Shown here: piece after piece, positions 47,381 through 62,449 of the stretch
Position numbering within the stretch: the first letter of the stretch is position 1
How the letters are laid out: each line of letters opens with the position of its first letter
Source of the DNA: Chitinophagales bacterium
GTDB lineage: Bacteria; Bacteroidota; Bacteroidia; Chitinophagales; JADJOU01
Assembly: GCA_044368655.1 (NCBI GenBank)
Contig: JBIPPB010000001.1
Coordinates: 154,918 to 218,917 of the forward strand
Direction of reading: 5' to 3'
Length of the DNA: 64,000 bases
The notes under the pieces: model-generated
Databases searched by the model: none
What the model saw: the letters and a program-made list of their open reading frames with translations, nothing else
Told to the model about the DNA's origin: nothing
Program-made: the position numbers and the translations under genes

Positions 47381-47701
47381 TTACTGAATTACTTCAATAA
47401 TCTTGCCGAGTTGTTCTTGCGATAACTGAATGGTAATGGTGGCGTTTGGACTGTAATTAGCTAAAATGTTTTTATTATTAGTTTGAGTTATAACCGCAGA
47501 ATGGGTAATCGTTCCAAAATCCGAACCTAATTTTTGTGCAATGTCTTCAATTTCGTTTAAAGTAAGCGGTACTTCCCCCGATTCTCTTCGAAGCCACGCA
47601 CTTCTCGATTTACCAATAAGTTCAGAAAAGTCATTGATATTCAGTTTCTTTTCTTTGTAGAGTTCTTTGATTTTGTTGAGTGCATATGTATTTCGATCCA
47701 T
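47381..47701 (-). CDS. XRE-family helix-turn-helix transcriptional regulator
   Basis: The N-terminal segment LNINDFSELIGKSRSAWLRRESGEVPLTLNEIEDIAQKLG fits the Cro/C1 HTH pattern. Confidence 0.7.
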   Translation of the reverse strand: MDRNTYALNKIKELYKEKKLNINDFSELIGKSRSAWLRRESGEVPLTLNEIEDIAQKLGSDFGTITHSAVITQTNNKNILANYSPNATITIQLSQEQLGKIIEVIQ

Positions 47702-49668: not shown

Positions 49669-50274
49669 ATGAATAGTTTTTTGTTAATAAATGTATTTAT
49701 CATCTCAATGTTTTTTTTAGTTGGATGTAATAAAAATATTGATGACCAATATTTACAAGAAGGAAATAATGAATATATTGAAAATGAAGACAATAGTTTA
49801 GAAAAAAACAGCTACAGAGATGGAACTTATTGTGGTGAAGTAGAGTATTATAATCCTACTACAGGAACAAGAAAAATATACGACTTAAATGTAGAAGTTG
49901 AAAACGGATTATTGACAATAATTCATTGGCCAAATAATGGCTGGCTAGATAATACCCATTTTTCTCCAAAGGATATAAATGATGGGGAATGCGAGTTTAT
50001 TTCTGACAAAGGCTGTCGTTATAAAGTCGTTTTAGGTGAAACTGGAGGATGTAGTTTTACTGATGAGTTTAAAATAAGAAGAGATGTAAATAATCATATA
50101 GAAACTGCAATTTGTCTTAGATGCGGAGACGACAATAAAGAGTCTTATGAGGATTATTGTTATTCTTGTAAAAAAAAAATTGAAGATGAGGAAGAAAACA
50201 CTTGTTCTAAATGTGGCAATTTTGAATATGGTGTATATGGAGAATTATGTACTTCTTGTAAAGGTGAAGAATAA
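49669..50274 (+). CDS. Hypothetical lipoprotein with a C-terminal four-CxxC (double zinc-ribbon-like) tail
   Basis: Lipobox LVGC. Conserved-looking core DGTYCGEVEYYNPTTGTRKIYDLNVEVENGLLTIIHWPNNGWLD. C-terminal CLRCG, CYSCK, CSKCG and CTSCK. Confidence 0.55.
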   Translation: MNSFLLINVFIISMFFLVGCNKNIDDQYLQEGNNEYIENEDNSLEKNSYRDGTYCGEVEYYNPTTGTRKIYDLNVEVENGLLTIIHWPNNGWLDNTHFSPKDINDGECEFISDKGCRYKVVLGETGGCSFTDEFKIRRDVNNHIETAICLRCGDDNKESYEDYCYSCKKKIEDEEENTCSKCGNFEYGVYGELCTSCKGEE

Positions 50275-50407
50275 ACAAGCTAAATCATACTCCTCATAAA
50301 ATATTATTAACCAATCATCTTGCTTTTGTTATAGATACGTTCGATTTTTACTAAAGCCTTTTGAGTAGATTGTTTTCACGTTCGCTTAAAAAGAGTCACT
50401 ATTTTGT

Positions 50408-50440
50408 TTTGTATTTTTTATATAATTTTACATAACTTTG
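50408..50440 (+). promoter_or_regulatory. Canonical Bacteroidota promoter TTTG-N21-TAACTTTG upstream of the Fic gene
   Basis: -33 TTTG at 50408-50411 and -7 TAACTTTG at 50433-50440, 31 nt before the ATG at 50472. Confidence 0.5.
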
Positions 50441-50471
50441 TGTATTGGAATTATTGAGCAACTAAAAGAAT

Positions 50472-51293
50472 ATGAAGGATATCGATCAGCTAATCACGCA
50501 GTACCGCACAGCAATGTGTCGGGTAGATGCATTACAGCATCAATTCTTTAACGAAATGGCGGTGGTATATCATTCGAATGCTATCGAAAATAGTACCCTC
50601 ACGCTCGATGAAACCATTCTATTGCTTGAGCATCGATTATCGCCCAATGGTAAGCCGCTCGCAGATATTTTTATGGCAGAAGACCACTATCAAGCCTTGA
50701 AGTTCATTTTGGAAATGGCGTATAATAAGCGTGCGCTAAGCCACGAATCCATAAAAGAAGTCGCTTCAAAACTAATGAAAAATACAGGAGGCGTCGTCGA
50801 GAGCATATCCGGAAGTTTTGATGTATCAAAGGGCGAATACCGAAAAGTTTTAGTCCGAGCTGGGCAAAGTGTTTTTCCCGACCCCAATAAAGTGCCTTTA
50901 CTCATGGAAGAATTCATTCATAGTATCAATGCATCGATGGATAAGGTTAAAAGTCCCATTGAGATTTATAATTTATCTTTTGATGCGCATTTTCAGGCGG
51001 TGTCCATTCATCCTTTTGGAGATGGCAATGGACGATTTTCTAGATTAATAATGAATTATATTCAAGCCTATCATCAAATGCCTCTTGTGTATATGGATCA
51101 AACAGACAAACAAAGGTATTTTGATACATTGGTTCAATCAAGAGCGAGTCAAAATATTGATTTATTCAGAACATATATGCTTGAATTGACGGTAAAATCG
51201 ATAGAAGAACAAATTGCATTTTATAATAAAAAATCATTCCATGCGTCGCCAAAAAATGACGAAAATGGTAAATTTCTGAGTTTGCTTTTTTAA
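50472..51293 (+). CDS. Fic-domain protein (class II, with N-terminal auto-inhibitory helix)
   Basis: Active-site motif HPFGDGNGRFSR (HxFx[DE]GNGRxxR). The inhibitory motif SNAIEN ([ST]xxxE[GN]) lies N-terminal in the same polypeptide. Confidence 0.88.
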   Translation: MKDIDQLITQYRTAMCRVDALQHQFFNEMAVVYHSNAIENSTLTLDETILLLEHRLSPNGKPLADIFMAEDHYQALKFILEMAYNKRALSHESIKEVASKLMKNTGGVVESISGSFDVSKGEYRKVLVRAGQSVFPDPNKVPLLMEEFIHSINASMDKVKSPIEIYNLSFDAHFQAVSIHPFGDGNGRFSRLIMNYIQAYHQMPLVYMDQTDKQRYFDTLVQSRASQNIDLFRTYMLELTVKSIEEQIAFYNKKSFHASPKNDENGKFLSLLF

Positions 51294-51326
51294 ATTATAC
51301 CAATTTTATATTATTTATGAAGTAAA

Positions 51327-51540
51327 TTAAATCCAATTAGTGCCTTAATCTAAGAATTTCTAATAACCTAATGCGTAATTTGAGTTAAACCCAAATTACG
51401 CATTAGAAAATGATTAATCGTATAATGTCTTGTAATTCAATTAATTTAACATTAATTGAAACAATCCATTTACGGGGTTAAACCCAACTAACGCCTTATT
51501 TTATTACTTCGTAATAATCTAATACGTAATTTGGGTTAAA
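51327..51540. repeat. Cluster of five copies of a ~22-bp motif (TTWAAYCCAAATTACGYATTAG-like) plus an unrelated hairpin, forming three consecutive stem-loops
   Basis: Copies at 51327-51348 (+, diverged), 51368-51388 (-), 51385-51406 (+), 51478-51499 (+, diverged) and 51519-51540 (-). Hairpins: 51368-51406 (15-bp perfect arms), 51436-51460 (10-bp perfect arms TTCAATTAAT/ATTAATTGAA) and 51478-51540 (long, imperfect). Confidence 0.75.
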
Positions 51541-52850
51541 TATGCTCCAATTTTTGTGCAATGATAATATGGAATATTATGAAGTATAAATGGTTTTTTT
51601 GTAAGTGTTTGGGAGGATTCTTTGGAGTATGGGCTTGCAGAAAGACGAATAGCTATAGGAGTGGCGGTATCGTCAATATATTGAAGCAGGGAGCGGAGCC
51701 GTCCGGTTTTTCCAGACTTTACTTCTATAGGATATACGGTATGGTTTGCTACAAATAAGTTGTCGATTTCGGCATTTGAATTATCGCGTTCTCGTACCCA
51801 AAAATAGGGTTTGTAGTGCAGCGAACCTTCAGTAGCTATAAGTTCTTGCGACACAATATGCTGTGCAATTTTGCCACGCATCATATCGCTAAGGTCGTGC
51901 ATTTGGATCATTTCGGCTTGCACATTGAGTAAATATAGTAAAAGCCCTGTATCTAAAAACTGCAATCGAGGACTTCGTTTGAGGTCAGGGATTATTGGAT
52001 AGCCCAGCTGTGTGGTAGGATGCACCACTTGAATAATTTTGGATCGATCTAGCGCCGAAAATGCTTCCGATACCTCTCTGGATTTATATGAAGATTTTCC
52101 AAAATTTTGATATTTGATTCGGTCTTTTTCCAGATGGGCATAACTCAAAATATGTTGAATCACTTTACGTTCGGTATCATTTTTGGCATATTTTGGAATA
52201 TCGTCACGGTAGCCTTGCCATAGATCTCCGTATATGGTAGATAGGCTTTGCATGTCTTTGGTATCTAAATAGTGCGCAATTACTTCGGGCATCCCACCAA
52301 TCATTGTGTATAGGTGAAATTGTTCTAGCAAAAGAGTGTGTGCAATATCAGAAACAGGCACTTCTTGGAAATAGGGTATCAGATGTGGTTGTGAGGCCTC
52401 TAAAAATTCCTCAAAATTAATTGGAAACAACGCCATTTGATGTACGCGCCCAACGGGAAAGGATTTAATATTTTTGAGTACAAATTCGAGCAATGAACCT
52501 GCTGCAATGACATCTAAATATGGGAAATCTTCATAAAAAAATCGTAACATCGTTATTGCTTTTTCAGATTCTTGAATTTCGTCAATAAAAAGGAGTGTTG
52601 GTTTTTGGGTAGTATATCCGTTTTTGAGTAGCAGGAATGCGACAAGTTTATCTATAGGCATGGTATCGAAAAGTATGCGCTCTTCTTCCCTCTCTAGATT
52701 GAGTAGTATTTTTTGTTCATAGGTATTTGAAAAATGGAGTACAAGGTTGGTTTTACCAACTTGCCGTGCCCCTCGGATTATCATCGGTTTTTTTCGAATA
52801 TCTTGTTTCCAAGCTTCTAATTTTTTTGTAGCACTTCTAAAAATATACAT
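51519..52850 (-). CDS. AAA+ ATPase with C-terminal DUF4143 / PD-(D/E)xK-like domain (COG1373-type)
   Basis: Walker A GARQVGKT, Walker B LLFIDEIQ, and a C-terminal EID-x12-EVK nuclease-like motif. I prefer the ATG at 52850 (tracked 52910 is TTG and reads through non-coding repeats). Confidence 0.85.
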   Translation of the reverse strand: MYIFRSATKKLEAWKQDIRKKPMIIRGARQVGKTNLVLHFSNTYEQKILLNLEREEERILFDTMPIDKLVAFLLLKNGYTTQKPTLLFIDEIQESEKAITMLRFFYEDFPYLDVIAAGSLLEFVLKNIKSFPVGRVHQMALFPINFEEFLEASQPHLIPYFQEVPVSDIAHTLLLEQFHLYTMIGGMPEVIAHYLDTKDMQSLSTIYGDLWQGYRDDIPKYAKNDTERKVIQHILSYAHLEKDRIKYQNFGKSSYKSREVSEAFSALDRSKIIQVVHPTTQLGYPIIPDLKRSPRLQFLDTGLLLYLLNVQAEMIQMHDLSDMMRGKIAQHIVSQELIATEGSLHYKPYFWVRERDNSNAEIDNLFVANHTVYPIEVKSGKTGRLRSLLQYIDDTATPIAIRLSASPYSKESSQTLTKKPFILHNIPYYHCTKIGAYLTQITY

Positions 52851-52867
52851 TAGGTTGATTTTGAATA

Positions 52868-52875
52868 CAAAAATA
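52868..52875 (-). promoter_or_regulatory. -7-type promoter box (TATTTTTG on the minus strand) for the ATPase gene
   Basis: The reverse complement of CAAAAATA matches TAnnTTTG, 17 nt before the ATG at 52850, directly abutting the repeat array. Confidence 0.4.
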
Positions 52876-52880
52876 CAGTT

Positions 52881-52970
52881 TTTGTAACAAAACGAACCAT
52901 AAATATTCAAAAATTTGTAACAAAACGAACCATAAAATTTGAATTATTTGTAACAAAACGAACCATAAAT
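52881..52970. repeat. Three perfect 23-bp direct repeats (TTTGTAACAAAACGAACCATAAA) on a 33-bp register; iteron/operator-like array
   Basis: Copies start at 52881, 52914 and 52947 with zero mismatches. The ~10-bp spacers differ. Confidence 0.9.
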
Positions 52971-53009
52971 AGAAATGAGAGTTCGTATTATAAATTCAAA
53001 ATAGGTATC

Positions 53010-53618
53010 TCAACAAACTTTAAATTCAAAAAGGGGTTGATTTTCAATAAAGCCTTTGTAGGATTCACCGATGGAAACCTTACCGACGCCTTTTGGGGTT
53101 CCGGTAAAGATTAAATCACCTTTTTGTAGGGTAAAATATTCGGAAATATAGCTAATAATTTGTGCTGAAGAATGTATCATTTCTTTGGTGTTTCCATTTT
53201 GAACTTCGGTTTCATTTTTTAATAAAGAAAATGAAAGGTTATCCAAATCCAGCGAATCTAAGGGTATAAATTGTCCAACGATTGCCGAATGATCAAACGC
53301 TTTTGCTATTTCCCATGGCAGTCCTTTTGATTTTAAATTTTCTTGAAGGTCGCGCGCTGTGAAATCAATTCCAACCGTAATTGCGTCTACATATTGAAGT
53401 GCAAATTTTGGTTGAATATGTTTTCCATTTTTACCAATTTTCAAAACCAATTCGCACTCATAATGCATGTTTTGGCTAAATTCGGGCAAAAACCATCGCG
53501 CTCCATTTGGATTTATCGCTGTGTTTGGTTTCATAAATAAAACAGGCGCTTCGGGCGTTTCATTTTTCAGCTCAGCAATATGTTCGGAATAATTTCGGCC
53601 GATACAAAATATTTTCAT
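53010..53618 (-). CDS. Fumarylacetoacetate hydrolase (FAH) family protein
   Basis: MKIFCIGRNYSEHIAEL N-terminus, metal-ligand pattern YECELV, and C-terminal GDLIFTGTPKGVG. Confidence 0.85.
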   Translation of the reverse strand: MKIFCIGRNYSEHIAELKNETPEAPVLFMKPNTAINPNGARWFLPEFSQNMHYECELVLKIGKNGKHIQPKFALQYVDAITVGIDFTARDLQENLKSKGLPWEIAKAFDHSAIVGQFIPLDSLDLDNLSFSLLKNETEVQNGNTKEMIHSSAQIISYISEYFTLQKGDLIFTGTPKGVGKVSIGESYKGFIENQPLFEFKVC

Positions 53619-53638
53619 TGAATTAAATTTAGATGGAT

Positions 53639-54052
53639 TTATAAAAAAATGACTTCGTGCGTAATCCTAGAAGATTTGCTCAACATGGCATGAACGCCAC
53701 AATAGGTTGTTATGGACATTTCAATTGCTTCATGGAATTTTTCTTGAAAATCAGGATCTAACTTTACGGTATAAACCAAATGAATGGTATCGTAAATTCT
53801 TGGATGTATATCGGTGAGCGAAGCTTTGGCAGAAACTTTAAAGGATTCAAGGGGCATTTTAAATTTTCGATGCATAATTGAAGCCACGTCCATTCCGGTG
53901 CAACCAGTAAGTGCCGTGAGCAATAGCTTTTTAGGCCCAACGCCTCGATGTTGATTGCCCATAGTCGTATTATCTAACGCTAAGGATTGTTCGTCTATTT
54001 TAGATTGAAAATAAAGGTCTTGTATCCATTCGGTTTCTACAAAATTTGCCAT
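53639..54052 (-). CDS. OsmC-family peroxiredoxin-like protein
   Basis: 137 aa with the two conserved Cys contexts LTGCTGMD and YCGVH. Confidence 0.75.
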   Translation of the reverse strand: MANFVETEWIQDLYFQSKIDEQSLALDNTTMGNQHRGVGPKKLLLTALTGCTGMDVASIMHRKFKMPLESFKVSAKASLTDIHPRIYDTIHLVYTVKLDPDFQEKFHEAIEMSITTYCGVHAMLSKSSRITHEVIFL

Positions 54053-59998: not shown

Positions 59999-62449
59999 TT
60001 GACTCCTTCAGAACAAATAGAAAAAGATCGTTTTAATAGTTTTATAGATGAGTTTAATGCTAAACTATTTATTTATATAACTCGTAAGAGTTTGTTTTTT
60101 ATTACATTAATTATATTTATTTCAATTTTAATACCAATTTTAATTGTACGATATACCACACCAATATATAAAGTAAATTCGGTATTGATTTATAAAAAGA
60201 AGTCTGAAGCTACAGATTTATTATCTAACATAGATTTAAAACAAGAGTCTAAAGATGCCACTAAGTTAAATAGAGATATTCAATTAATTAAGTCGGATTT
60301 TTTATTAGATAAATGTATAGATAGTTTTGGACTTAATTATTCCTTATATCGAGTCGGATTTTTACCGTTTAAGAGATTTGAGATTTATCCTCTTGATGAT
60401 TTTGAAATTGATAGGAATTCAAAAATAGTAAATAGTGCACTATACAACAATCCAATAGAAATTGAAGTCAATGGAAAAACGTATGATCTAAAATATAAAA
60501 TTAATTCTAAGAATGTTGTAAAAAGGAACATTCGTTTTGGAACACTTTTTAAGACGAAAGATTTAGAATTAAAATTAGATAACAAAGCAAATAAATTCGA
60601 GGTTGGAACGTATGAGCTGATTTTTAATAATAGTGAAAATATAAAAAAGTGGCTTCAGGATAACATTGAAATTGCAAAAGACGAAAATCAAGGAATCATT
60701 GATTTAACTGTAAAGACAAACCACTCTGGAAAAGCAACCCATATTTTAAATACATTAGTGAGTCAGTTTTTAATTTTTGATCGAGAAGAAAATCAAGAAA
60801 AGCTACAAAAATCGATTTCATTTATTGACATTCAATTAGATACCTTTAAACTAAATTTTTGGCAATCGGAAAATAAACTTAATAATTTAAAACAACAAAA
60901 TAATATATATAGTCCTTCCGATGAGCTAAGCGCATATTTATCTCAAATACAAGCATTAGAAATTCAAAGGCAAGAAATAGAATATCAGCTTGATGAATTA
61001 CGAAATTTAAAAGAAAATACCTCTCAAAATATTAGTATTGTTCAACTTTCTAAGATTGAAAAGGGGAGTAATATCAGTAATCTTTCTCAAAAAGTATTAC
61101 AGCGAAACATGCTTTTATTAGATTATAAGTCGGATCATCCCTCTATAAAAGCACTTAACAATCAGATAGAACATACAACTAGAGAAGTGAAACAGTTTTT
61201 ATATCAAAATATTAAAGATAACGAACTCAAGCTTCAAAGATTTAGAATGCAAGTGGGTCAAATTAAATCTAAAGTAAATGATGTTTCAGATTTATCTTCT
61301 CAATATGCTCAATTTGAGAAAGAGTCCTCTTTAAAAGAAAAATTTATATTTGACCTTTTAGATAAACGAAATCAATTTATGGTCATGAAGTCTGGAATAT
61401 TATCAGACTATGTGATGTTACAACCGCCAAAGATTGCTCCAGATCTCGTTGCTCCAAAATCAAAACTATTATATCTTTTAGGTTTTATATCTTTTATTTC
61501 GCTATCGCTTGGATTGGTCTTTATGCGATACACCCTTTTTGATAAAGTAATTTCTTTAGATGTCATCAAAAAACGCATTAATTCCCCAATTTTGGGAGTA
61601 ATACCTTTTGAACCAGAAGCGGAAGACCATTCGATAAAAAATAAAAAATCTCCTTTAACGAAAATTGTAGTTAATAATCATGCTAAATCAAGAATAGCAG
61701 AAGCATTCAAAAAAATTAGAGCAAGTTTAAAATATGCACACGCATCTAATTTTAAAACATTTGCAACTACAAGTACCATTTCAGGAGAAGGTAAAACCTT
61801 TGTATTAACAAATTTGGCATCTGTATATGCGCAGCTTGGAAAGCGAGTTGTTATTGTAGATTTAGACTTAAGAAAACCTCGTATTGCCAAATCTTTTAAA
61901 CTTAAAAATCATATTGGAATGAGTACGATTTTATGTAGTCATGAAGATTATAAACAATACGTACAAAAAGTAGATGGACTCGAAAATATCGATTTTATTA
62001 CTTCGGGGCCAATTCCTCCAAATCCATCGGAATTAATTTTAAGTCATCGATTTGATGAAATATTAAATCAGCTCAAAGATGACTATGATTATGTATTTAT
62101 TGATACGCCTCCAGTTGGTCTTGTCAACGAATCAATAGAAATTATAAATAAAGTAGATATTCCTATTTACATAATAAGAGCTAATTATAGTAAAATAGAT
62201 TTTATTAGCAATATTAAGATTATAAATGATCAATTGAAAAATAATACATTATATACTATAGTCAATCATTTTGGATCAGGGGCTTCAAGTTATGTTAATT
62301 CTTCATATGGTTATGGCTATGGTTATAGTTATGGCTATGGTTATGGCTATGGAAGTCGAAAAGATGACACTACCGAAGGTTATTATATTGAGTCCAAAAA
62401 TAATCAAAAGGTATATTTTTGGAAAAAATGGTTTGATTGGACACTTTAA
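59999..62449 (+). CDS. wzc: Polysaccharide co-polymerase / BY-tyrosine autokinase (Wzc-like) with a C-terminal Tyr-Gly repeat cluster
   Basis: N-terminal Wzz-type TM and coiled-coil region. Kinase Walker A SGEGKTF, A' VVIVDLDLRKP, Walker B VFIDTPP. C-terminal YGYGYGYSYGYGYGYG. TTG start. Confidence 0.85.
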   Translation: MTPSEQIEKDRFNSFIDEFNAKLFIYITRKSLFFITLIIFISILIPILIVRYTTPIYKVNSVLIYKKKSEATDLLSNIDLKQESKDATKLNRDIQLIKSDFLLDKCIDSFGLNYSLYRVGFLPFKRFEIYPLDDFEIDRNSKIVNSALYNNPIEIEVNGKTYDLKYKINSKNVVKRNIRFGTLFKTKDLELKLDNKANKFEVGTYELIFNNSENIKKWLQDNIEIAKDENQGIIDLTVKTNHSGKATHILNTLVSQFLIFDREENQEKLQKSISFIDIQLDTFKLNFWQSENKLNNLKQQNNIYSPSDELSAYLSQIQALEIQRQEIEYQLDELRNLKENTSQNISIVQLSKIEKGSNISNLSQKVLQRNMLLLDYKSDHPSIKALNNQIEHTTREVKQFLYQNIKDNELKLQRFRMQVGQIKSKVNDVSDLSSQYAQFEKESSLKEKFIFDLLDKRNQFMVMKSGILSDYVMLQPPKIAPDLVAPKSKLLYLLGFISFISLSLGLVFMRYTLFDKVISLDVIKKRINSPILGVIPFEPEAEDHSIKNKKSPLTKIVVNNHAKSRIAEAFKKIRASLKYAHASNFKTFATTSTISGEGKTFVLTNLASVYAQLGKRVVIVDLDLRKPRIAKSFKLKNHIGMSTILCSHEDYKQYVQKVDGLENIDFITSGPIPPNPSELILSHRFDEILNQLKDDYDYVFIDTPPVGLVNESIEIINKVDIPIYIIRANYSKIDFISNIKIINDQLKNNTLYTIVNHFGSGASSYVNSSYGYGYGYSYGYGYGYGSRKDDTTEGYYIESKNNQKVYFWKKWFDWTL
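62306..62352 (+). repeat. Hexanucleotide (TATGGY)n microsatellite encoding the Wzc tyrosine cluster
   Basis: TATGGTTATGGCTATGGTTATAGTTATGGCTATGGTTATGGCTATGG read directly; about 8 units. Confidence 0.9.

Follow-up and report, generated by a model that had tools for sequence, protein, structure and literature searches.

The array and its surroundings

The window analysed here is a 64-kb stretch of Chitinophagales DNA in which the 23-mer TTTGTAACAAAACGAACCATAAA occurs three times on the plus strand, without a mismatch and at a period of 33 bp (Table 1). The copies lie between the stop codon of an FAH gene (53010) and the start codon of a gene for an AAA_14/DUF4143 ATPase (52850), and a TATTTTTG box adjoins them on the minus strand. 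These landmarks were found where the initial annotation had placed them, and its three perfect copies were borne out by an exact scan, by shuffling (chance expectation for 23-mer matches 0.00, 100 shuffles) and by Tandem Repeats Finder, in which the array gave the highest score of the window (period 33, 2.8 copies, score 147). No fourth copy was seen at up to 3 mismatches on either strand of the whole window. Read on its sense strand, which is the minus strand, the array consists of the unit TTTATGGTTCGTTTTGTTACAAA followed by a 10-nt spacer.

Upstream of the array and co-directional with the ATPase gene are genes for FAH, OsmC, a thioredoxin-like protein, ScpA and HolA, while a convergent gene downstream encodes a Fic protein matching PADLOC PDC-S04/SoFic; the locus is flanked by housekeeping genes. 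An HTH_3 gene is located 5 kb from the array (47381-47701). No integrase, transposase, Rep or cas gene was found in 36-64 kb of the window, and the earlier statement that rep, integrase and transposase genes are missing holds for this part, the one examined. Recombinase arm-type sites or transposon ends were rejected on the same absence of integrase and transposase genes, and on the lack of a second array after the gene in any locus. A CRISPR array was likewise discarded: the spacers are 10 nt long and mutually related, whereas CRISPR arrays have repeats of 23-47 bp and spacers of ~26-72 bp, and cas genes were missing from the same 36-64 kb. A search for structured RNA (Rfam, positions 50000-54000, E <= 1) returned nothing relevant.

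Table 1. Coordinates of the array, the putative promoter box and the ATPase gene in the window
Feature	Position	Strand	Description
AAA_14/DUF4143 ATPase gene	51519..52850	-	443 aa; PADLOC PDC-S01; proposed array binder; Pfam, PADLOC, AlphaFold, Foldseek
Putative Bacteroidota-type -7 box	52868..52875	-	TATTTTTG; match to TAnnTTTG consensus only
R1, promoter-proximal 23-bp core	52881..52903	-	sense TTTATGGTTCGTTTTGTTACAAA; -53..-31 from ATG; exact copy
R1-R2 spacer	52904..52913	-	sense TTTTTGAATA; low information content across homologues
R2, middle 23-bp core	52914..52936	-	-86..-64 from ATG; exact copy; offset -86 conserved
R2-R3 spacer	52937..52946	-	sense TAATTCAAAT
R3, distal 23-bp core	52947..52969	-	-119..-97 from ATG; exact copy

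Within the array, pairwise comparison revealed 0/69 differences in the cores, whereas the 10-nt stretches following the cores gave 18/30 (Fisher p = 3e-12). The spacers do differ from one another, as described at the outset, but the first of them is TATTCAAAAA, 10 nt long and not 9, and the supposed third one (52970-52979) is flanking sequence. The two true spacers are still alike at 5/10 positions, and those of the orthologous array L003 (see below) at 8/10; the array therefore arose when a 33-bp unit was duplicated in tandem, and only the spacers drifted later. The initial annotation had preferred selection to a simple recent tandem duplication; the first half of that reading agrees with the preserved cores and diverged spacers, but tandem duplication of the unit was nevertheless the origin. 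A neutral minisatellite was rejected on this uneven divergence over the unit (p = 3e-12) and on the conservation of the register across the family.

A period of 33 bp corresponds to 3.14 turns of B-DNA, and successive units are rotated by ~50 degrees, such that the copies face the same side of the DNA only roughly. Internal dyad symmetry of the unit is weak at best. Curvature through phased A-tracts was dismissed, as the A/T runs in the unit, judged by eye, are not spaced at ~10.5 bp. The array had been called non-coding, since the one open reading frame across it begins at a TTG and brings in an extension without homology; indeed, the N-termini of 64 homologues align on the ATG at 52850, leaving the extended frame unsupported.

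The ATPase and its predicted structure

The product of the gene scores 91.5 bits against Pfam AAA_14 (cut-off 27) and 68 bits against DUF4143 (cut-off 28.1), and matches the PADLOC PDC-S01 model PDLC04788 over residues 1-441 (E = 3.8e-162). These profile scores, all above the cut-offs, assign it to the PDC-S01 / AAA_14-DUF4143 family. PDC-S01 is an unvalidated single-gene defence candidate that ranked as the fourth commonest defence-type locus across prokaryotes in a 2026 survey (PMC12988326) and as the most frequent single locus in rumen genomes (PMC13356809). It has been described as an ATPase fused to a PD-(D/E)xK domain (PMC12988326, PMC13356809, PMC3424549), and DUF4143 has been placed in the PD-(D/E)XK superfamily (PMC3424549). 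We refer to the protein as a candidate anti-phage ATPase-nuclease.

The AlphaFold model (pLDDT 91.3, pTM 0.90) predicts an AAA+ domain (residues 1-165), a helical lid (166-224), a winged helix (~225-300) that includes the conserved helix YKSREVSEAF at residues ~255-269, and a PD-(D/E)xK nuclease domain (~301-443). In this C-terminal alpha/beta domain K378 is invariant and D363 and E376 are nearly so in alignments of 64 and 19 sequences; judged from these alignments, the PD-(D/E)xK catalytic residues are present. The top Foldseek matches in the PDB were the Orc1/Cdc6 proteins on origin DNA (2qby_B and 2qby_A, E = 2e-7), followed by ORC and Cdc6 subunits and then by STAND NTPases; a sequence search of the PDB with the ATPase gave no match. 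By fold similarity, the winged helix is a candidate DNA-binding domain.

The array in close relatives

An identical protein is encoded on two metagenome contigs, each with an identical 201-bp promoter region. An exact scan for the 23-mer through one genome per species (185,579 species) returned only the Chitinophagaceae MAG JAFEIJ010000027, at the orthologous FAH-ATPase-Fic locus (L003), and a dispersed genome-wide repeat, the outcome that would have counted against a link to the gene, is thereby excluded. The MAG locus contains three units, one core of which carries a single C-to-T change. Between it and the window there are 1/69 differences in the cores and 7/20 in the spacers (p = 8e-5); this comparison and the one made inside the window array (above) both indicate, at the level of the DNA sequence, that the cores are selected relative to flanking non-coding DNA. 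Similarity between the two loci collapses just upstream of the distal unit R3, where the MAG has 106 extra nt. Three units are also present in a strain whose protein is 98% identical, with one G-to-A change in the proximal core. Strain L004 has 2 units versus 3 in the window; its contig covers 141 residues of the protein, at 99% identity.

The same architecture is found with homologues of 80, 64, 60, 58, 57 and 56% identity, beside unrelated upstream genes. Counting the window, there are six of these (FAH, YhcG-like, HisRS, a CBM96/T9SS protein, a YegS-like kinase and a Por_Secre_tail protein). Offsets from the ATG are close to fixed: the units sit at -119/-86/-53 in the window, L005, L006 and L009, at -127/-94/-60 in L012 and at -121/-89/-56 in L016. 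Locus L015 has at least 5 units, running up to the contig end, and the identity of its spacers after the first three indicates a recent expansion. Across this clade the core has invariant columns, 17-23 (TTACAAA) and a few more; its middle is lineage-specific (TTCGTT, TGTAGT, TGTATT, TATACA) but uniform inside each array, and the spacers hold almost no information. At these loci the array travels with the ATPase gene. The proposed link between a selected multi-site array and this gene is supported by its presence in orthologues and paralogues, at 56-100% identity and in different neighbourhoods, as well as by the asymmetry between cores and spacers.

Duplications that may hint at insertion were seen at two loci. 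In L012 a 1.5-kb unit of gene plus array has the 3' end of the neighbouring gene on both sides, as a 256-bp direct duplication, and in L009 a 107-bp duplicated fragment of the adjoining crp-like gene stops 3 nt from the array. In the window, a duplication of the FAH 3' end beyond the ATPase/Fic block that would mark an insertion was sought and rejected, the match being only 19 nt long (E = 0.025). A transposon-like terminal inverted repeat, pairing the array with positions 51732-51758 towards the gene's 3' end (78% over 27 nt), was also rejected: it recurs only in the 80%-identical homologue, with 6 mismatches, and because it is absent from the other loci we regard it as a coincidence kept by coding conservation. 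Apart from this coding-sequence match and a weak, chance-level one ~1.9 kb downstream, no inverted copy of the array was present within 4 kb at up to 6 mismatches.

A 33-bp register across the family

Relatives of 21-43% identity were collected from annotated plasmids, phage records and a viral-contig scan (73 loci). This distant sample, drawn from viral-contig and plasmid collections, covers Bacteria and is biased to those of the gut. For each gene the best 18-nt direct repeat in the 200 nt upstream was determined at lags of 15-89 bp. The best lag was 32-34 bp in 33 of 53 non-redundant upstream regions and 65-67 bp in 6 of 53, in relatives down to ~25% identity; among strong repeats (at least 15 of 18 positions identical), 33/35 fell at one of these lags. 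Controls gave a lag of 32-34 bp far less often, in 5/51 regions after the gene, 2/46 regions 500-700 nt upstream and 2/53 shuffled upstream regions, and none of these repeats was strong.

Arrays were found in 38 of 60 non-redundant loci, with three units in 22, two in 8, four in 6 and six in 2. The other 22 had no array by the criterion used, some of them being degenerate or showing the 66-bp lag. Neither L017 (S. copri RS14575) nor a Treponema homologue of 21% identity has an array, from which it follows that the array is not obligatory. Clear arrays occur in Segatella copri, Parabacteroides distasonis, Collinsella aerofaciens (three perfect units of CACATTTTCCGATGGAAAAACGTG), Vibrio coralliilyticus, Acinetobacter, Glaesserella parasuis and Criblamydia sequanensis; those of Ruminococcus albus are weak, and in Fusobacterium the pattern is ambiguous. 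The 33-bp-spaced layout, as read from upstream sequence, recurs before relatives of the ATPase in at least five bacterial phyla, with cores that are unrelated between subfamilies (for example TTTTGCCCCATCTTTGAAAC, GCAGATTATTTCTCGGATTTGAGTA, TTTCGTTCATTTTATGTG, ATTTTCCATCCGAAAAGTGT and TTGAAAAGTCA). Many units of other subfamilies have internal dyad symmetry, such as TTTTCC-N3-GGAAAA or TTTTTATGCGCATAAAAA. The literature found, which includes the PDC source preprint and covers the journals incompletely, makes no mention of upstream repeats for the DUF4143/COG1373/PDC-S01 family, and as far as it goes, this very abundant family of defence candidates has in the array a hallmark that crosses phyla and had not been described before.

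Core sequences follow the protein, not the host

Two paralogues separated by 1.3 kb on contig L012 differ in their cores, ATGGTGTAGTTTGTTACAAA and ATGCCGAAAAGT..., and on the replicon of S. copri DSM 18205 the core of RS14040 is AAAAGTCCCTCATAAAAGTGT and that of RS14125 is CCGTCAAAACGTGAGAAATAG. Since paralogues in one genome differ in this way, the binder must be paralogue-specific. Conversely, the core ending in ...GAAAAGTG is common to 43-51%-identical proteins from Collinsella, Glaesserella, S. copri and two metagenomic loci, its hosts spanning Actinomycetota, Pseudomonadota and Bacteroidota, and 70%-identical proteins of Vibrio and Acinetobacter have the core TTTTATGCGCATAAAA in common. 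In these comparisons the core sequence tracks the protein subfamily across phyla, and not the host. No second gene that would be constant across the loci was seen.

Taken together, paralogue-private cores, cores that track the subfamily and the lack of another constant gene make a host regulator unlikely and leave the ATPase as the sole cis-encoded candidate. It is the best-supported option for the array binder, to which both the sequence comparisons and the predicted fold point. A match between core and protein is in itself no proof of recognition, because the gene and its upstream region are inherited together.

Position of the array relative to the promoter

The putative -7 box starts 5 nt from the end of R1, which in turn is 31 nt from the ATG, and sits 17 nt before the start codon. 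Transcription is predicted, from the consensus box, to start ~12-14 nt before the ATG; assuming a start at ~13 nt, R1 would span about -40 to -18 of the promoter. A TAnnTTTG box is equally placed in L005, L006, L009, L016 and others, and no good TTG -33 element occurs at the canonical spacing of 19-21 nt in the window clade. The idea that each 33-bp unit is a complete promoter was abandoned, as the upstream units in the window are without a -7 box in register. A sigma-70 promoter and terminator scan, a model that does not fit Bacteroidota promoters, found no terminator between the FAH gene and the array.

In other subfamilies the array takes up a different position with respect to the promoter, varying from upstream-abutting through straddling to downstream. 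At Firmicutes-like loci the unit TTGAAAAGT provides a -35 hexamer (TTGAAA) and a TATAAT follows 17 nt on, in the proximal spacer, while the last unit falls between the -10 box and the ribosome-binding site, over the start region. One unit lies downstream of the -7 box in L047/L052, as do all three in S. copri RS14125; at S. copri RS14040, ~29 nt separate the end of the last unit from the box downstream of it. Going by predicted promoter boxes, the sites abut or overlap the core promoter of the gene that they would regulate.

Discussion

We suggest that the array serves the ATPase gene as a private operator: the ATPase itself would assemble on it cooperatively and so autoregulate the gene, probably by repression; we give this explanation a somewhat better than even chance. 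The winged helix would read the 23-bp core, possibly with the AAA+ domain as a second contact, in the manner of Orc1/Cdc6 on origin boxes. Each 33-bp unit could be occupied by one protomer or one dimer, and AAA+ contacts between neighbouring subunits would render occupancy cooperative and probably nucleotide-dependent. Since R1 would cover about -40 to -18 and adjoins the -7 box, its occupancy would set the transcription of the ATPase gene. Negative feedback is the most likely outcome, which would keep the level of a potentially toxic nuclease low and buffered, and repression is favoured because in several other subfamilies units are found over the core promoter or downstream of it. The rotation of ~50 degrees per site might, as speculation, reflect a gently helical filament, or DNA wrapped round an oligomer in which three dimers make a hexamer. 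We infer the identity of the binder, the stoichiometry, the cooperativity and the sign of regulation, and the last of these is the least secure step, since the geometry in the window also fits a class II activator.

Such an activator, in the form of the ATPase or its ATP-bound oligomer at R1-R3, would recruit RNA polymerase in place of the weak -33 element and produce positive feedback or a switch-like burst. It would account for an array that in the window clade lies wholly upstream of a -7 box with no good TTG element at 19-21 nt, and it is consistent with the gap of ~29 nt between the last unit and the box at RS14040. However, activation is impossible from units placed over or after the core promoter, as they are in L047/L052, L074/L077 and S. 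copri RS14125, and a nuclease gene under positive feedback would put the cell at risk. We consider activation unlikely.

To a similar degree we doubt that the array is mainly an iteron-like or ORB-like assembly site for a resting immune sensor, or the cis end or origin of a small mobile cassette, with no role as a transcriptional operator. The ORC/Cdc6-like fold, the modal copy number of three (22/38 arrays), the occurrence of gene and array in many unrelated neighbourhoods and the flanking duplications in L012 and L009 would all be in keeping with it. For pure loading, though, there would be no need of arrays tied to the core promoter at near-fixed offsets from the ATG; moreover, a second, inverted array at the other end is lacking, the flanking duplication is absent in the window, and the presence of several paralogues on one replicon argues against active origins. 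A more elaborate version, to which we assign a lower probability still, takes the array as more than an operator, namely as the cis assembly site of a self-contained, horizontally moving cassette of "ORC-like initiator plus iteron" type. Three dimer sites would template an AAA+ hexamer that wraps ~100 bp of its own promoter, and the particle could be the poised resting state of a very widespread immune nuclease or the insertion machinery of the 1.5-2 kb cassette; the duplicated stretches of host genes around the unit in L012 and L009 are a hint of insertion.

Bacterial operators are most commonly bound by a separate, trans-encoded regulator, in this case perhaps a global or defence-island repressor of the host, and the HTH_3 gene 5 kb away in the window offers a conceivable source. 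Yet cores differ between paralogues within one genome, one core recurs with one protein subfamily across phyla, and no neighbouring gene is conserved across the loci; regulation in trans is therefore improbable in our view. Least probable of all, and very unlikely, is an array with no dedicated binder, be it a promoter minisatellite that acts like a contingency locus, with promoter geometry or strength set by the number of units (2, 3 or at least 6), or a neutral tandem duplication: near-identical strains do differ in unit number (L004 and the window) and L015 does have identical spacers after its first three, but the core and spacer asymmetry, the persistence of the 33-bp register and offsets while cores change completely, and the re-creation of the repeat in five phyla, not expected of a neutral one, speak against it.

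The preferred reading, autoregulation from a private operator, can be set against known systems. Iterons of theta plasmids (F, R6K, RK2, pPS10) are tandem direct repeats of ~20 bp in 3-7 copies, with a period of ~22 bp, and are bound by Rep initiators. The array resembles them in being tandem and direct, with a fixed helical-phase register, a conserved core with free spacers, a lineage-private sequence and a position adjoining the gene of its presumed binder. Unlike iterons, it belongs to an AAA+/winged-helix/PD-(D/E)xK gene with no Rep family by Pfam/NCBIfam (only AAA_14 and DUF4143), has a period of 33 rather than ~22 bp and overlaps the predicted core promoter of that gene; the two units 1.3 kb apart in L012 and the two or more arrays on one S. 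copri replicon would be incompatible with active origins. With archaeal Orc1/Cdc6 proteins and their ORB elements, the ATPase would share the order of AAA+ domain, lid and winged helix, at the level of the predicted fold only. Orc1/Cdc6 sites likewise lie beside the gene of their own binder, and a monomer contacts a ~30-bp element via winged helix and AAA+ domain. ORBs, however, are inverted round an AT-rich unwinding region, whereas units of the window type are all direct repeats at a promoter, and the ATPase is bacterial, has an extra C-terminal nuclease domain and shows no detectable sequence similarity to PDB entries.

DnaA on the boxes of the dnaA promoter and the STAND protein MalT on MalT boxes are oligomerising P-loop NTPases that bind cooperatively under nucleotide control, and DnaA represses its own gene. 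As proposed for the ATPase, each is a P-loop NTPase with a DNA-binding domain acting on several like-oriented promoter boxes. Their boxes are short (6-9 bp) and irregularly placed, in contrast to 23-bp cores in a strict 33-bp register, and their DNA-binding domains are unrelated (HTH domain IV in DnaA, a LuxR-type HTH in MalT). WYL repressors of the BrxR/CapW type are encoded by separate genes and control defence systems; the likeness would be a defence gene controlled through promoter repeats, as we propose here, but no second gene is conserved at the array loci, and the sole candidate for binding is the effector. The array can be classed as a phased operator or iteron-like array, a familiar type of element, while being a member of neither iterons nor ORB origins. 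Among the labels first offered for it, operator fits best; iteron and arm-type site each fail on defining features.

So far no mechanism beyond "ATPase fused to a nuclease" has been proposed for PDC-S01, and phased, paralogue-private promoter sites give the family its first concrete molecular handle. The array predicts that the ATPase is a sequence-specific DNA binder of ORC-like architecture, names its target and implies self-limited expression. It further predicts a single subunit or a dimer for every 33 bp, three units being the usual number. Clones used to test candidate defence genes usually include ~150 bp of native upstream DNA and may therefore either include or truncate the array. Cultured hosts with arrays are available in Segatella copri DSM 18205, Collinsella aerofaciens and Vibrio coralliilyticus, and arrays are also found on Acinetobacter plasmids. 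Genomes with tens of paralogues would need tens of mutually insulated operator-protein pairs, and may as such provide a natural system for the diversification of DNA-binding specificity.

Duplicated flanks around the array and ATPase gene

At L012, a homologous locus in the clade of the window ATPase, two direct copies of a 256-bp segment (88.7% identical) stand on either side of a 1.5-kb unit made up of the array and the ATPase gene; the duplicated segment is the 3' end of the adjoining YegS-like gene. The YegS-like gene upstream is complete, and past the ATPase gene comes an orphan fragment of 80 aa with 90% protein-level identity. This arrangement resembles a Campbell-type or att-like insertion; the 1.5-kb unit carries no recombinase. 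At L009, from the same clade, a 107-bp direct repeat pair (91% identical) encloses the array, the ATPase gene and ~300 nt further, and its upstream copy, which stops 3 nt short of the distal array unit, is an orphan piece of the downstream crp-like (cNMP-binding) gene. Flanking direct repeats were also present at L016, another locus of this clade (62 bp, 97%, REP-like), and at the further homologue loci L021, L049 and L069 (~100 bp, 76-80%). A search of the window for flanking direct repeats of the L009/L012 kind found none.

Part of a family member, its N-terminal third, lies in the record of Mycoplasma phage phiMFV1, which annotates it as an ORF that the prophage has disrupted.

Positions of the repeats, genes and regions discussed in this part
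Feature	Sequence	Position	Strand	Remarks
Fic-domain protein	window	50472-51293	+	convergent with ATPase; matches PADLOC PDC-S04/SoFic models
Fic-ATPase intergenic region	window	51290-51545
Inverted pair of TTAACCCAAATTACGTATTAG copies	window	51368-51406
Genes for small proteins	window	~46.6-50.3 kb
TATGGT repeat	window	62306-62352		tandem hexamer/18-mer; 7.8 copies; TRF score 66-80
816-aa ORF	window	59999-62449		contains the TATGGT repeat
256-bp duplication	L012	3573-3828, 5363-5618
107-bp repeat	L009	3773-3879, 5640-5746
Array	L015	1-204		reaches contig end
~21-nt tandem repeat	L005	380-500		just upstream of array
N-terminal third of family member	AY583235.1	3966-4439

Variation in unit number and other repeats

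The array of L015, also of this clade, comprises at least five units, and because the spacers after its first three units are identical (ATATTGTCAT), we infer that it has recently expanded. With at least five units there and two in the near-identical strain L004, against three in the window, unit number is polymorphic.

Repeats of other kinds occur near homologous ATPase genes. The tandem repeat of L005 is GC-richer (CTTCGCGGTTTCCTTAGCGTT...), and related copies lie ~150-430 nt past the stop of the same ATPase gene. No 33-bp array was found in L017:2160-2490 (Segatella copri DSM 18205 LK433_RS14575, a 39.5%-identical homologue); upstream of the annotated start codon of this gene stands a long palindromic structure built of GGAGTTAA/TTAACTCC repeats. 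Elsewhere in the window, the ORF holding the TATGGT repeat gives matches to P-loop NTPase domains of the ParA/MinD-like kind (AAA_31, CbiA, ParA).

The Fic-ATPase region and its neighbourhood

The stretch between the Fic and ATPase stop codons is predicted to fold into several hairpins, much more stably than shuffled sequence does (z = -7.3). The ATPase's final six codons and stop codon form TTAACCCAAATTACGTATTAG, of which two further copies make up an inverted pair. A 63-nt segment of this region is duplicated, its copies 151 nt apart, and ~96 nt of the region are missing from L003, the orthologous FAH-ATPase-Fic locus of a Chitinophagaceae MAG.

The ATPase-Fic pairing is present in L003 and L005 and absent from more distant homologues. 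The small proteins encoded nearby are mostly without annotation, with one HTH_3 protein among them, and this stretch, taken with the Fic and ATPase genes, has the look of a small islet of accessory or defence genes amid housekeeping genes.
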